A DNA stretch of 64,000 nt from Octopus sinensis (GCF_006345805.1 NC_043002.1:55366001-55430000); one strand, 5' to 3'. Positions 172 through 62,481 are shown, counted from the stretch's first letter. Translations and numbers: made by a program. The notes: a model not told the origin generated them from the letters alone.

Positions 172-440
172 TGTCGTAGTGGTTATGAGCGTGGGCTACT
201 AACCCCAAGATCCGAGTTCGATTCCAGGCAGTGACCTGAATAATAATAATAATAATAATAATTATAATTATAATAATAATAATAATAATAATAATATCGA
301 AAAATACCTTAGGAATGAGAACCCAGGTTCGAAATTTCCTCAAGATACCTGATGAAGGCTGGAAGGTATATCAGCCGAAACGTTGTGTTAACAACAAGCA
401 AGATGAGGGCAAATATCCGTCAAATGTAAATAGTGTAAAT
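172..440 (+). mobile_element. tRNA-derived SINE-like head, (AAT)n, then a minimal hammerhead-containing tail
   Basis: A-box-like GTAGTGGTTA (about 175-184) and B-box GAGTTCGATTCC (213-224), followed by an (AAT)n tract and a hammerhead core at 344-389. Confidence 0.6.
344..389 (+). ncRNA. Minimal type I hammerhead ribozyme (Penelope-type, stem III reduced to palindrome AACGTT)
   Basis: gatac-CTGATGA-a-ggctg..cagcc-GAAA-cg-TT-gtgtt. Stem II is ggctg/cagcc; stem I is gatac/gtgtt with two G-U pairs. Confidence 0.7.
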
Positions 441-2155
441 AAGGATCACTTATTTCTACTAAATCAAGTTTGTGTTTATTAAGAGTTTCTAAGATGGGTG
501 TATTCTGACTGGTAAATCATCGATCAGGGACTCAGATAGTTAAGAACGATTCCAGACGGATTCTTTTACAGCAATGATTTGCACACATATTTCCCAATAA
601 CAAATGCTAATGGTAAAGATATTCTTGGGACAAAACATCGATAGGAGAATTGCGATATAGCAAGGATATTTCAAACATATTGTAACGAAGTTGTAATCCA
701 CTCATATAGCAAAATAAAATATAACACAAACAATAAAATATTGGCAGTCTGATAAATTATTAGCAATTTATTGTTTCCATACAAAAATACAAATATTTCT
801 CATTTATATAATTGAATAATAAAAATGATGTCGCCGTATATATATATATATACATGAAAGTACTACAGTGAGTACATCGTAATATTATATATATATATAT
901 ATATATATATAATATATATATATATATATATATATGTGTGTGTGTGTATGTGTGTGTGGTGTGTATACATACATATTTATATATATATTATATATATATA
1001 TATATATATATATATATATATATATATATATATAATATATATTTCAAACAATTGAGGGTAAAATTAATTAGTTATTAATCAATTTCACCAAGTATTCAGT
1101 ATGTAAAAGGACCATTTAAGGCGAATTCAAAATATTACATTATGTATGTATGTATGTATGTGTGTGTGTGTATATATATATATATATATATATAATATAT
1201 CTATATATATATATATATATATATATATATATATATATATATATATATAATATATATTAAGGATCAAAAAATTATCAAATGGAATAGAAAAATAAATTAT
1301 TTCTAAAATGAACAAAATAACCTAGATATAGGTATGTATATATACAATATATATATATATAGAATGATATGTCAGTCCAAATGGTGTAATACCAAAAACA
1401 TCGACGTAACACAATATTAAATATTTATTTCATAAAGGAGAAATATATATTGTTTTCGATTATAAATGTGATAAGAAAATATAGTCAATATAGTAAGGAT
1501 ATTGTAACGAAGTTGTAATCCACTCATATAACAAAGTATAAAAATAACTGAGTATAAAATAGAATTTAATGTTTCCATACAAAAACATATTTCTAATTTA
1601 TATAATAAATAATAGAAATGATGTTAGCGCGTATATACATACATACATACATACATACATACATACATACATACATACACGCACGCACGCGCACACACAC
1701 ACACACATATATATGCATACATGAAAGTACTATTGGTGTAATGTATTGTAATATGATATATATATATATATATATATATGCATAAAAGATAAAAATATTA
1801 TCAAATGGAATAGAAAAACGAATTATTTATAAAATGAATAAAATAACGCAGATAAATGTATATATATATATGGCAGCCGTCTTTTTGATATTAGCTGGAC
1901 AATTTGGGAAAAAGAAGCACCATATAAATTGATACGCCACATTCTCACTGGCGTAATACGAAGAACATCGTTGTGATACGATATTAAATATAGATATTTA
2001 TTAAATATCTTAGAAATATATATTATTTTCGATTATAAATCGATATGATTATTAAGTGGTGAAGCTAAAACACTTCTACATAATTGAAACGATACACTTG
2101 TATCTGATTTTTCTCTAACTGAGATTGTTTACAGAAGTATTATAACAGGAAGTAA

Positions 2156-2314
2156 TTACATAAAGGATTCTAGAGTATTTTGAATGTGGTTTATATTTTC
2201 ATGAAGTGTATGGAGTGTAATTATGGTAAACCATCGCTGCTGGATTATTGGCACATCGTCCGGTAGCAAAAGACTGTCATCCACTTCGACATTTTGTTTG
2301 ATGTTTGAAAATAT
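2156..2314 (-). CDS. Secreted helical-cytokine-like protein, copy A, last coding exon (IFSNIKQ...QNTLESFM*)
   Basis: tttcag acceptor, phase 0, TAA stop. The 52 aa are identical to copy B (40269-40427), with only two synonymous changes seen. Confidence 0.85.
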   Translation of the reverse strand: MFSNIKQNVEVDDSLLLPDDVPIIQQRWFTIITLHTLHENINHIQNTLESFM

Positions 2315-58500: not shown

Positions 58501-61157
58501 CTTTTCTCTTCAGCGTAGAATACTATAATCATAAATGATTATATATTGAATTTTGAGATACCAGAAGGCACCAACTCAACTCAGTATCAGAGCGAGCTAG
58601 AATCCGCAACTGGTATCACCGAATTCAATTTGTGAATGAAACGATTGTGTCAACAGCCCCTTCCCACCCGCGTGTAGCCAAAACAAGATGCTGTGGTCAT
58701 CTACTGAGATAAAATATGGTTATCCGTAATAATGAAGGGTGAAATTAATTAATTTGGAAAAATTATCAATTACACCAAGTAGTCTTCGGCATGTAAAAGC
58801 CTCATTCGAGGAAAATTCAAGTAATACTAAGCAATAAGGGTTTAGCAACGAGTTGCCCTACCACACACCGAATTTAGAAATAGCAGCCAAAGGGTTATAG
58901 CTATTTCTTCTACTAAAAAGGGAGATCTCAGTAAAAACAGCATTTGGAAGGCAGACACAAACAGGTAAGAGAGAATGAATTGACTGCAATCTATCATACA
59001 TTTTTTTTAGTTATCCACGGACGTACGTTTCGAAATCAAGTTTTTAGGAAAGCATAAGAATTAAATATTAAATATTAAATAATTCTATCTTACCGAAACT
59101 TCTTTTCTCTTCAGCGTAGAATACTATAATCATAAATGATTATATATTGAATTTTGAGATACCAGAAGGCACCAACTCAACTCAGTATCAGAGCGAGCTA
59201 GAATCCGCAACTGGTATCACCGAATTCAATTTGTGAATGAAACGATTGTGTCAACAGCCCCTTCCCACCCGCGTGTAGCCAAAACAAGATGCTGTGGTCA
59301 TCTACTGAGATAAAATATGGTTATCCGTAATAATGAAGGGTGAAATTAATTAATTTGGAAAAATTATCAATTACACCAAGTAGTCTTCGGCATGTAAAAG
59401 CCTCATTCGAGGAAAATTCAAGTAATACTAAGCAATAAGGGTTTAGCAACGAGTTGCCCTACCACACACCGAATTTAGAAATAGCAGCCAAAGGGTTATA
59501 GCTATTTCTTCTACTAAAAAGGGAGATCTCAGTAAAAACAGCATTTGGAAGGCAGACACAAACAGGTAAGAGAGAATGAATTGACTGCAATCTATCATAC
59601 ATTTTTTTTAGTTATCCACGGACGTACGTTTCGAAATCAAGTTTTTAGGAAAGCATAAGAATTAAATATTAAATATTAAATAATTCTATCTTACCGAAAC
59701 TTCTTTTCTCTTCAGCGTAGAATACTATAATCATAAATGATTATATATTGAATTTTGAGATACCAGAAGGCACCAACTCAACTCAGTATCAGAGCGAGCT
59801 AGAATCCGCAACTGGTATCACCGAATTCAATTTGTGAATGAAACGATTGTGTCAACAGCCCCTTCCCACCCGCGTGTAGCCAAAACAAGATGCTGTGGTC
59901 ATCTACTGAGATAAAATATGGTTATCCGTAATAATGAAGGGTGAAATTAATTAATTTGGAAAAATTATCAATTACACCAAGTAGTCTTCGGCATGTAAAA
60001 GCCTCATTCGAGGAAAATTCAAGTAATACTAAGCAATAAGGGTTTAGCAACGAGTTGCCCTACCACACACCGAATTTAGAAATAGCAGCCAAAGGGTTAT
60101 AGCTATTTCTTCTACTAAAAAGGGAGATCTCAGTAAAAACAGCATTTGGAAGGCAGACACAAACAGGTAAGAGAGAATGAATTGACTGCAATCTATCATA
60201 CATTTTTTTTTTTTAGTTATCCACGGACGTACGTTTCGAAATCAAGTTTTTAGGAAAGCATAAGAATTAAATATTAAATATTAAATAATTCTATCTTACC
60301 GAAACTTCTTTTCTCTTCAGCGTAGAATACTATAATCATAAATGATTATATATTGAATTTTGAGATACCAGAAGGCACCAACTCAACTCAGTATCACAGC
60401 GAGCTAGAATCCGCAACTGGTTTTACCGAATTCAATTTGTGAATGAAACGATTGTGTCAACAGCCCCTTCCCACCCGCGTGTAGCCAAAACAAGATGCTA
60501 TGGTCATCTACTGAGATAAAATATGGTTATCCGTAATAATGAAGGGTGAAATTAATTAATTTGGAAAAATTATCAATTACACCAAGTAGTCTTCGGCATG
60601 TAAAAGCCTCATTCGAGGAAAATTCAAGTAATACTAAGCAATAAGGGTTTAGCAACGAGTTGCCCTACCACACACCGAATTTAGAAATAGCAGCCAAAGG
60701 GTTATAGCTATTTCTTCTACTAAAAAGGGAGATCTCAGTAAAAACAGCATTTGGAAGGCAGACACAAACAGGTAAGAGAGAATGAATTGACTGCAATCTA
60801 TCATACATTTTTTTTTTAGTTATCCACGGACGTACGTTTCGAAATCAAGTTTTTAGGAAAGCATAAGAATTAAATATTAAATATTAAATAATTCTATCTT
60901 ACCGAAACTTCTTTTCTCTTCAGCGTAGAATACTATAATCATAAATGATTATATATTGAATTTTGAGATACCAGAAGGCACCAACTCAACTCAGTATCAG
61001 AGCGAGCTAGAATCCGCAACTGGCTGTTGACACAATCGTTTCATTCACAAATTGAATTCGGTGATACCAGTTGCGGATTCTAGCTCGCTCTGATACTGAG
61101 TTGAGTTGGTGCCTTCTGGTATCTCAAAATTCAATATATAATCATTTACGATTATAG

Positions 61158-61269
61158 TATTCTACGCTGAAGAGAAAAGAAGTTTCGGTAAGATAGAATT
61201 ATTTAATATTTAATATTTAATTCTTATGCTTTCCTAAAAACTTGATTTCGAAACGTACGTCCGTGGATA
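61158..61269 (+). ncRNA. Type I hammerhead ribozyme in the inverted arm (second copy at 61762-61873)
   Basis: CTGAAGA at 61167-73, GAAA at 61250-53, GTC at 61259-61. Confidence 0.88.
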
Positions 61270-62481
61270 ACTAAAAAAAAAAATGTATGATAGATTGCAG
61301 TCAATTCATTCTCTCTTACCTGTTTGTGTCTGCCTTCCAAATGCTGTTTTTACTGAGATCTCCCTTTTTAGTAGAAGAAATAGCTATAACCCTTTGGCTG
61401 CTATTTCTAAATTCGGTGTGTGGTAGGGCAACTCGTTGCTAAACCCTTATTGCTTAGTATTACTTGAATTTTCCTCGAATGAGGCTTTTACATGCCGAAG
61501 ACTACTTGGTGTAATTGATAATTTTTCCAAATTAATTAATTTCACCCTTCATTATTACGGATAACCATATTTTATCTCAGTAGATGACCACAGCATCTTG
61601 TTTTGGCTACACGCGGGTGGGAAGGGGCTGTTGACACAATCGTTTCATTCACAAATTGAATTCGGTGATACCAGTTGCGGATTCTAGCTCGCTCTGATAC
61701 TGAGTTGGGTTGGTGCCTTCTGGTATCTCAAAATTCAATATATAATCATTTATGATTAGAGTATTCTACGCTGAAGAGAAAAGAAGTTTCGGTAAGATAG
61801 AATTATTTAATATTTAATATTTAATTCTTATGCTTTCCTAAAAACTTGATTTCGAAACGTACGTCCGTGGATAACTAAAACAAATGTATGATAGATTGCA
61901 GTCAATTCATTCTCTCTTACCTGTTTGTGTCTGCCTTCCAAATGCTGTTTTTACTGAGATCTCCCTTTTTAGTAGAAGAAATAGCTATAACCCTTTGGCT
62001 GCTATTTCTAAATTCGGTGTGTGGTAGGGCAACTCGTTGCTAAACCCTTATTGCTTAGTATATATATATATATATATATATATATATATATATATATATA
62101 TATATATATATATATATATATATATATATATATATCGCTAGTTTGCGGCGATGCTGTGGCACGACCATGAAGAATTGTTTGTCGAATGTATTAACCCGAT
62201 GATTTATTTCTGAAAGCTATGTACTTATTCTGTTGGTAAATTTTTAGTGAACTGTTAATTTACAAGCATTGGTCGTCAAGCGGAACTCAAGGGGAGGGAC
62301 AATGGCACACACACACATACATACATACACACGCACACACACACATGCACACAGAAACGCACAAACTCATTCATGCACATATGTATATATATGTATATCC
62401 CGAACAATCTATCTATCTATCTATCTATCTATCTATCTATCTATCTATCTATCTATCTATCTATCTATCTATCTATCTATC

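Follow-up and report, generated by a model that had tools for sequence, protein, structure and literature searches.

Hammerhead ribozyme families in the TA repeats of Octopus sinensis: a truncated Penelope-like element and five non-coding families that bear a related insertion signature or ribozyme

Here we analysed a stretch of 64,000 nucleotides of the Octopus sinensis genome (GCF_006345805.1 NC_043002.1:55366001-55430000, called the window throughout) that holds type-I hammerhead ribozymes of six families, which we name F344, PLE12042 (the 12042 family), F534, F21, F489 and F600. Five of the six lie in TA repeats and one, PLE12042, is a truncated copy of a coding Penelope-like element (PLE). 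We propose that this copy derives from a PLE of the Hydra clade and that the five other families, which are non-coding, are probably parasites that PLE proteins reverse-transcribe into nicked DNA, the nicked target being likely (TA)n or, in the case of the tRNA-headed F344, other DNA. The original prediction for this window had proposed a radiation of non-autonomous ribozyme retroelements dependent on PLEs; the radiation and the tie to PLEs stand, but the 12042 family is not non-autonomous and the dependence of the other five families is argued here from their insertion signatures.

Hammerhead families in the window and in the genome

A descriptor of the type-I hammerhead (helix I, CUGANGA, helix II, GAAA, helix III, UH) retrieved 22 motifs from the window, 21 of them with strict stems. 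In 200 block-wise dinucleotide shuffles of the window the loose descriptor found a mean of 0.29 motifs and the strict one found none in any shuffle, so that motif frequency is far above that of shuffled sequence; a frequency no higher than in shuffles had been named as fatal to the proposal. Allowing one extra base after A9 added the motifs at 344-389 (+) and 21439-21473 (-). The cores lie at +349, +12053, -14463, -21469 and +44411/44900/45389, with 15 minus-strand and two plus-strand F600 cores between 52397 and 61871, and they agree with the positions, the six families and the three and 17 copies predicted. (TA)n or TA-rich microsatellite bounds five of the families, F344 being the exception, much as the prediction that nearly all of them sit in (TA)n had it. 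An Rfam scan of the window gave no hammerhead among the 150 of 213 rows listed, which were microsatellite-driven miRNA and snoRNA matches under their gathering scores.

The six families cannot be aligned with one another outside the hammerhead core, which is all that they have in common. Helix III is self-complementary in every one, and 42-68 nt lie inside helix II in four of the six. In F344 and F21 helix III is ACGT; the AACGTT previously given for these two motifs takes in A14 and the cleavage-site base. The stems had also been described as compensating, which, the families being unalignable, means only that each keeps its own pairing. True double changes do occur between families and their relatives, in helix II of F489 (ATCTG/CAGAT against ATCTA/TAGAT) and in helix I of F600 compared with an older relative (L221).

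When 100 evenly spaced 10-kb stretches (1 Mb) of the 2.72-Gb genome were searched, 19 motifs were found against 0-3 in ten shuffles (mean 1.3), and helix III was self-complementary in 13 of the 19 against two of 13 in the shuffles. Five of the sampled motifs belong to the window families or their relatives and the remainder to about a dozen other families. Leaving out two motifs at stretch edges, 8 of 17 motifs are followed within 300 nt by the beginning of a (TA)6 run, compared with 15% expected (p = 0.002). The genome-wide excess and the enrichment beside (TA)n were both checks that the original prediction had proposed, and both came out in its favour. The six families in these 64 kb exceed the average of the genome sample about fivefold, which does not make the window a special locus. 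Extrapolating from 19 motifs per Mb, about 50,000 hammerhead motifs would make up a notable part of the genome, many of which descriptors with short loops would miss on account of the long helix II insert. For single families, a 33-nt pattern of F600 has 3,336 genomic matches (about 1,500 insertions by extrapolation), a 31-nt piece of F344 has 2,373 exact matches (control, 0), and F21 has seven matches in a random 1 Mb.

It is of negligible probability that AT-rich, repetitive DNA produced the motifs by chance, or that they reflect an artefact of assembly. The region 28887-74000 does exist a second time as a redundant contig, which would suit an artefact, but the absence of strict motifs from the window shuffles already refutes this explanation, as do the excess of motifs and of self-complementary helices III in the 1 Mb sample and the thousands of copies across many chromosomes.

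The 12042 family and its coding Penelope-like element

The hammerhead at 12050..12129 (+), with helix III ACACGTGT, a 47-nt insert in helix II and a predicted cut after 12126, lies in a 5'-truncated PLE copy (11044..12196, +) composed of a frameshifted remnant of the GIY-YIG endonuclease (to 11458), the 3' untranslated region (UTR) and a short 3' end, which we call A, at (TA)n. Sequence comparison and the junction tally described below identified an inverted piece of the same family (10972..11049, -) whose long 3' end, B, abuts (TA)n, and a second short 3' fragment, with half a hammerhead, ends near A between TA runs (26779..26882, -). The copy is 90-97% identical to 36 of the 37 other loci fetched. 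Its endonuclease remnant, already recognized in the original prediction, is real: 11044-11458 is 81-84% identical to an intact open reading frame (ORF), and a genome search gave 10,682 candidate relatives of the remnant. Frames of 757-923 aa are open at all eight relative loci fetched, with intact ORFs of about 900 aa at two of them (L032 and L033). At L032 the 899-aa frame is flanked by two 582-nt repeats that are 99% identical (2473-3053 and 6094-6674), both of which hold the PLE hammerhead, forming a pseudo long terminal repeat (LTR) from a partial tandem.

The predicted structure of the PLE protein (pLDDT 77.8) has telomerase reverse transcriptases (RTs) as its five best PDB fold matches, and a PDB sequence search with the protein profile gave no match. 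GIY-YIG is matched in Pfam by three of 60 aligned homologues. The protein carries the motifs SDKT, RIRWL and CNLC, has no CCHH, and its RT motifs fit by eye the published Hydra alignment (PMC8557442). Hydra PLEs carry canonical hammerheads and have (TA)n targets, and Hydra-1_Obim from Octopus bimaculoides is listed among them (PMC8557442, Craig et al. 2021). Copies of the 12042 family share the Hydra-type preference for (TA)n, with 35 of 36 3' junctions at TA, and include inverted truncated copies with the tail at one end (A and B ends in 7/7 two-strand loci), the tail being about 155 nt against the published 30-40. Six motifs taken from the window families had no match in the available supplement of that paper, which points to a different family. 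Judged by these features, the 12042 family is a truncated copy of an autonomous, young and intact Hydra-clade PLE with RT and GIY-YIG, and not the non-autonomous element that had been supposed. The clade assignment rests on motifs, and the safe wording would be a Hydra-like lineage that lost the linker described below. Further Hydra-type PLE families were seen in the genome (L229, L335, L339, L350, L352, L357-L374), several carrying a hammerhead 285-790 nt past the endonuclease; a young group among them has frames of 960 aa and the CxCX5C linker and lacks any hammerhead within 1.5 kb.

An insertion signature shared with Penelope-like elements

Four of the non-coding families have 3' junctions much like those of the coding element. 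Unique 3' junctions fall at TA in 30/31 cases for F600, 36/46 for F489, 33/39 for F534 and 19/23 for F21 in tallies that took the 30 best-scoring loci of each family, some of which overlap, whereas only 2.3% of random positions do so (about 2-5%). Eight of the ten F489 junctions that are not at TA are internal breaks or inversion junctions. Taken with the PLE junctions, these counts sustain the predicted targeting of (TA)n in five families. In the four larger families (F600, F489, F534 and PLE) the 3' ends take two fixed positions, A and B, separated by 100-155 nt; counted from the predicted cut, these lie at +197 and +292-312 in F600, +129-134 and +233-240 in F489, +157-160 and +286-295 in F534, and +57-70 and +211-226 in PLE. 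TA-bound ends occur on both strands at 35 loci, of which 33 pair an A end at one side with a B end at the opposite side (p = 2e-8), an arrangement also seen in the F600 and PLE insertions of the window; of the remaining two, one is A/A and one mixed. Inverted insertions make up 17 of 46 for F600 among the first 100 matches listed, all with their 3' ends outward.

This pattern recalls the behaviour of the Poseidon_Ac PLE protein in vitro, which cleaves and extends both strands, initiating at two internal positions between which the genomic tail lies (PMC11167929, Frangieh et al. 2024), and PLE tails are often found at one end only (PMC8557442). Having the same two-site signature as PLEs, the non-coding families bear the mark of PLE insertion. 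Short TA-bounded pieces at 1043-1140 and 45705-45800 resemble the B-type 3' ends (CCCT...TTAATT) of F600 and F534 and are probably the tails of further families.

Non-coding tandem families and the template of their arrays

The largest array is that of F600, made of a long arm with 15 hammerhead-bearing units of 602 nt (52103..61023, -), whose outer end is B and whose helix III is ACGTACGT, and an inverted short arm with two hammerheads and A as its outer end (61022..62058, +). F489 comprises 3.1 units of a 489-nt element (44160..45688, +) with three hammerheads and helix III ACGGTGCATCGT, and F534 comprises 1.5 units of a 534-nt element (14105..14885, -) with the hammerhead at 14388-14470 and helix III ACAATTGT. 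All three consist of non-coding tandem units of 489-602 nt with 32-36% GC and one type-I hammerhead per unit, and their predicted circles are structured (z between -3.8 and -7.9). The longest ORF with a start Met is 26-52 aa, and no match at E < 0.5 was obtained to 121 PLE proteins. By unit size, hammerhead, a GC content under 45% and the lack of a protein, these families classify as non-LTR retrozymes. A 3' fragment of an F489 relative (76-77% identity) lies between TA runs at 6931..7057 (+) and ends at A, and a near-perfect 190-bp inverted repeat at 45823-46014 stands beside the F489 array. Contigs from four sequencing runs, whose status as RNA is guessed, cover the F600 unit and its tandem junction, and in three of the four also F344; since contigs reveal neither ends nor strand nor level, we conclude nothing from them.

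In the mechanism that we propose, the PLE endonuclease would nick both strands of (TA)n and the RT would initiate internally on the RNA, using site A for one strand and site B for the other. The two cDNAs would then join head to head and leave an inverted insertion that is flanked by an A end and a B end. The hammerheads would cut read-through tandem transcripts into monomer circles on which the RT would roll to yield arrays of up to 17 units, a step that we favour somewhat over its absence. A retrozyme cycle by way of circular RNA has been proposed before (PMC7229834). The hammerheads of F344 and F21, for which no monomeric helix III is possible, would by analogy with published work act as dimers only, while in the four with long palindromes helix III could comprise 2-4 bp in a monomer or 8-12 bp in a dimer, the tandem transcript providing partners in cis.

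The F600 array of the window carries four substitutions present in 16-17 of 16-17 units, in both arms. Three of these, tested jointly, gave 30 matches, found only in the window and its redundant contig, against 3,336 units genome-wide, and other F600 and F489 arrays have fixed changes of their own. Array-private haplotypes of this kind fit rolling-circle copying of one circular monomer, and they also fit a local expansion after insertion. The latter belongs to an alternative, proposed as a route in bioRxiv 10.64898/2026.07.22.740005, in which the non-coding families are leftover PLE terminal repeats that entered with one or two units and were later amplified locally by unequal crossing-over, the hammerhead being a passenger and no circular RNA being made. 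Local expansion too would fix private variants in all units, and this account sits well with the mixed arrays that exist and with the lack of 5' ends at the cut, described below. Against it speak the roughly 1,500 dispersed F600 insertions extrapolated above, which are 95-99% identical and for which no coding parent was found, the private variants common to both inverted arms, which arise at insertion, and the helices preserved through double changes in relatives, and we consider it improbable.

Several observations weigh against the parasite and rolling-circle scenario and have to be set beside the shared signature. Genomic 5' ends show no clustering at the hammerhead cut (0/26, 3/35 and 1/51, the F534 counts taking in alignment breaks), which leaves the genome without a direct trace of cleavage. 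Hammerhead mutants were without effect on the in vitro insertion of another PLE (PMC11167929), and eight of nine Xenopus retrozyme dimers failed to cleave (bioRxiv 10.64898/2026.07.22.740005). The PLE protein itself has no Pfam match to RT or GIY-YIG, and its ORF lacks the CxCX5C linker before the endonuclease, which 106 of 120 homologues and sister families of the same genome possess. Some arrays are mixed (C11, C7 and C6b), which a single circle could give only with later change. Young, dispersed copies exist for every one of the six families, but the loci examined were the best-scoring copies and young copies are hence over-represented among them. Lastly, no autonomous PLE with sequence in common with F600, F489, F534, F21 or F344 came to light among loci of about five PLE families, in several of which the 3' UTR is longer than the 1.5 kb seen; nor did three PLE-family protein queries and 18 further 3' stretches reveal shared terminal sequence, Poseidon- and Neptune-type PLEs, which are more likely to be the partners of F344 and F21, not having been searched. 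Of the autonomous PLEs with shared termini that the original prediction expected, there is thus one for the 12042 family and none in this set for the five non-coding families. An F600 relative beside a PLE (L221) was considered as a shared element and proved to be a separate insertion.

Read on the ribozyme strand, all four private changes of the F600 array (52103-62058) replace A by G and could be a trace of A-to-I editing, and one of them recurs in 3/46 other insertions, in a predicted helix. Against editing, three of the four sites are predicted to be unpaired and an older relative has G at the recurring one. No family-wide strand bias of A>G changes was detected (F600, nine against seven, p = 0.21; other families, p = 0.35-1.0). 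Editing of the template RNA may therefore be regarded as a lead. More ambitiously, the genome might record the whole cycle, with a PLE protein priming at A and B on one hammerhead-made circle and rolling round it, each array being a clone of a single RNA, in the window one with four A-to-I edits that were copied into all 17 units, and the SINE-like F344 having a PLE rather than a long interspersed element (LINE) as its partner, but taken as a whole we find this version doubtful.

The integration of animal retrozymes, and the role of PLEs in it, is still argued mostly from co-occurrence, and the published case for dependence on PLEs adds terminal-repeat homology (PMC7229834 and the available part of bioRxiv 10.64898/2026.07.22.740005). 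The octopus genome combines non-coding arrays with an intact and young PLE of the same signature, the start sites being defined to a few bases, which makes the proposal testable in a published in vitro assay.

F344 and F21

F344 has a tRNA-like head, with A and B boxes (168..238, +), followed by an internal (AAT)n (239..296, +) and a minimal hammerhead (344..389, +) with a predicted cut after 384, the element ending near 441; upstream lies an inverted copy of its 3' end (101..166, -) that stops at the long (tail) end, as it does in other copies. The Rfam tRNA model scores F344 heads at 13.6 and 14.5 bits, under the gathering score of 29. Upstream of 33 F344 hammerheads from 30 loci, both boxes were found in eight cases and one box in five, most copies being 5'-truncated, and (AAT)n precedes 31 of the 33. 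Only one of 37 3' junctions is at TA. There are two 3' ends about 35 nt apart, and head-to-head pairs are of the A/B type in 7/10 two-strand loci (p = 0.17), a pattern that weakly suggests the two ends of the larger families. Neither a LINE-derived 3' tail nor colinear insertion was seen in F344; its 3' part is the hammerhead with two ends, frequently inverted head to head. On this composition F344 would be a tRNA-headed element, resembling a short interspersed element (SINE), and it lies outside (TA)n. We found no description of a cephalopod SINE with a hammerhead, or of a tRNA SINE mobilised by PLEs, in a search that lay outside repeat databases and subscription papers, where the family may be catalogued.

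F21 is a 208-nt monomer (21338..21545, -) with a minimal hammerhead at 21439-21473, and two inverted 5' pieces with (TA)n between them lie at 21558..21716 (+). Neither F21 nor F344 showed a tandem arrangement among the rows listed, which held monomers or inverted pairs. A 112-bp repeat at 20960-21070, with (TA)n on both sides, about ten matches per Mb and no hammerhead, starts on its minus strand with GTGACCG, the same word as F21.

Palindromic helices and TA repeats

The original prediction suggested that family-specific palindromes could restrict the partners of hammerhead dimers, acting in effect as tags that keep dimers within a family. Thermodynamic prediction agrees with this as far as it goes, the homo-duplexes of the four long palindromes being placed at -6.4 to -17.5 kcal/mol and no cross-duplex better than -4.7. 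Five of the six palindromes nevertheless recur in unrelated families: ACGT is common to F344 and F21, and ACGTACGT, ACAATTGT and ACACGTGT recur in the families L270, L193 and L314. Moreover, helix I forms only 0-1 pairs in 29 of 30 cross-family combinations, and because it must pair across strands in a dimer, it already separates the families and the palindrome adds little. Any palindrome favours self-pairing, which is the published dimer mechanism, and a palindromic helix III with dimer cleavage is the published norm (PMC4209133). By these comparisons the idea of tags is unnecessary, and we hold it to be very unlikely.

We also asked whether the elements make or lengthen (TA)n on insertion, by telomerase-like addition or target duplication, beyond merely targeting it. 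The 113 flanking TA tracts have a median of 40 nt compared with 28.5 in simulations that cut length-weighted tracts at random (p = 0.0004), 5'-start pieces of F489 and F21 (20-24 nt) lie between TA runs at 43912-44035 and 21558-21581, and the predicted RT fold is telomerase-like. A preference for long tracts yields the same excess of flanks, though. The F600 target has a sister copy in the window without the insertion, in which TA amounts to about 96 bp, whereas the tracts on the two sides of the array total about 114 bp, a gain of at most about 20 bp. The junction islands occur only at the insertions of the window, other loci having given none except simple repeat, and the junctions between tandem units are without TA. 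On balance TA gain seems unlikely.

The F600 target site has an older paralog (34102-36642 compared with 49557-62480, 92-95% identity) with only about 11 bp of TA, and the filled copy shows a tandem duplication of about 300 bp and a 24-bp deletion beside the array. Contig C10246 (L289-L294), considered as an empty allele, turned out to be a redundant copy: it duplicates the window from 28887 onward at 98% identity, part of it twice, and is either redundant assembly or a tandem duplication of about 46 kb. It holds a further hammerhead pair with helix III ACTGCAGT. Elsewhere in the window there are broken remnants of non-LTR retrotransposons at 8300-10770 (+), with an RVT_1 match at 9634-10038, and at 3390-4045 (-), and very abundant SINE-like repeats without a hammerhead at 7090-7550, 22357-22733 and 24079-24531 (130-195 matches per Mb).

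Comparison with known systems

Many hammerhead families, palindromic helices III and the targeting of TA are known already, and the general picture is in print. To this the window adds a two-site signature with long tails that is shared among families, arrays that are clonal, hammerheads with long inserts in helix II, and the family with a tRNA-like head.

The 12042 PLE resembles the Hydra clade (PMC8557442) in its single ORF with RT and C-terminal GIY-YIG, its DKT motif, the CxxC near the end and the absence of CCHH, as well as in the hammerhead with palindromic helix III in the 3' part, the (TA)n target, the inverted truncated copies and the tail at one end. Unlike that clade, it is without the CxCX5C linker and has two long disordered inserts; tails here are 100-155 nt instead of 30-40, and helix II with loop 2 takes up 42-68 nt compared with 4-8 nt in nine Hydra-type rows. 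With Poseidon_Ac in vitro (PMC11167929) the elements share two internal RT start sites at the bounds of the tail, an AT-rich target and the cutting and extension of both strands; Poseidon_Ac belongs to another clade, however, and the sites here are further apart, fall one on each side of inverted insertions and occur also in non-coding elements.

F600, F489 and F534 are like the non-LTR retrozymes (PMC7229834, Cervera and de la Pena 2020; bioRxiv 10.64898/2026.07.22.740005, Li et al. 2026) in being non-coding tandem elements with type-I hammerhead units. In comparison with the evidence in the available parts of both papers, the octopus arrays add PLE insertion signatures and array-private haplotypes.

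F344 and F21 agree with the minimal PLE dimer hammerheads (PMC4209133, 2014) in the extra base after A9, in G10.1-C11.1 and in the ACGT helix III, and also in that many families occur per genome, mostly as single motifs. They differ from these in that F21 is a monomer of fixed length in (TA)n and F344 has a tRNA-like head. In this last respect F344 approaches Sm-alpha and Sj-alpha of Schistosoma (PMC6765202, PMC2770079), with which it shares a candidate tRNA-related pol III promoter followed by a hammerhead and a high copy number. Whereas Sm-alpha is described in tandem repeats, the copies of F344 are scattered, in many cases as inverted pairs joined head to head with a tail of about 35 nt on one side, and F344 carries an internal (AAT)n and a minimal hammerhead.

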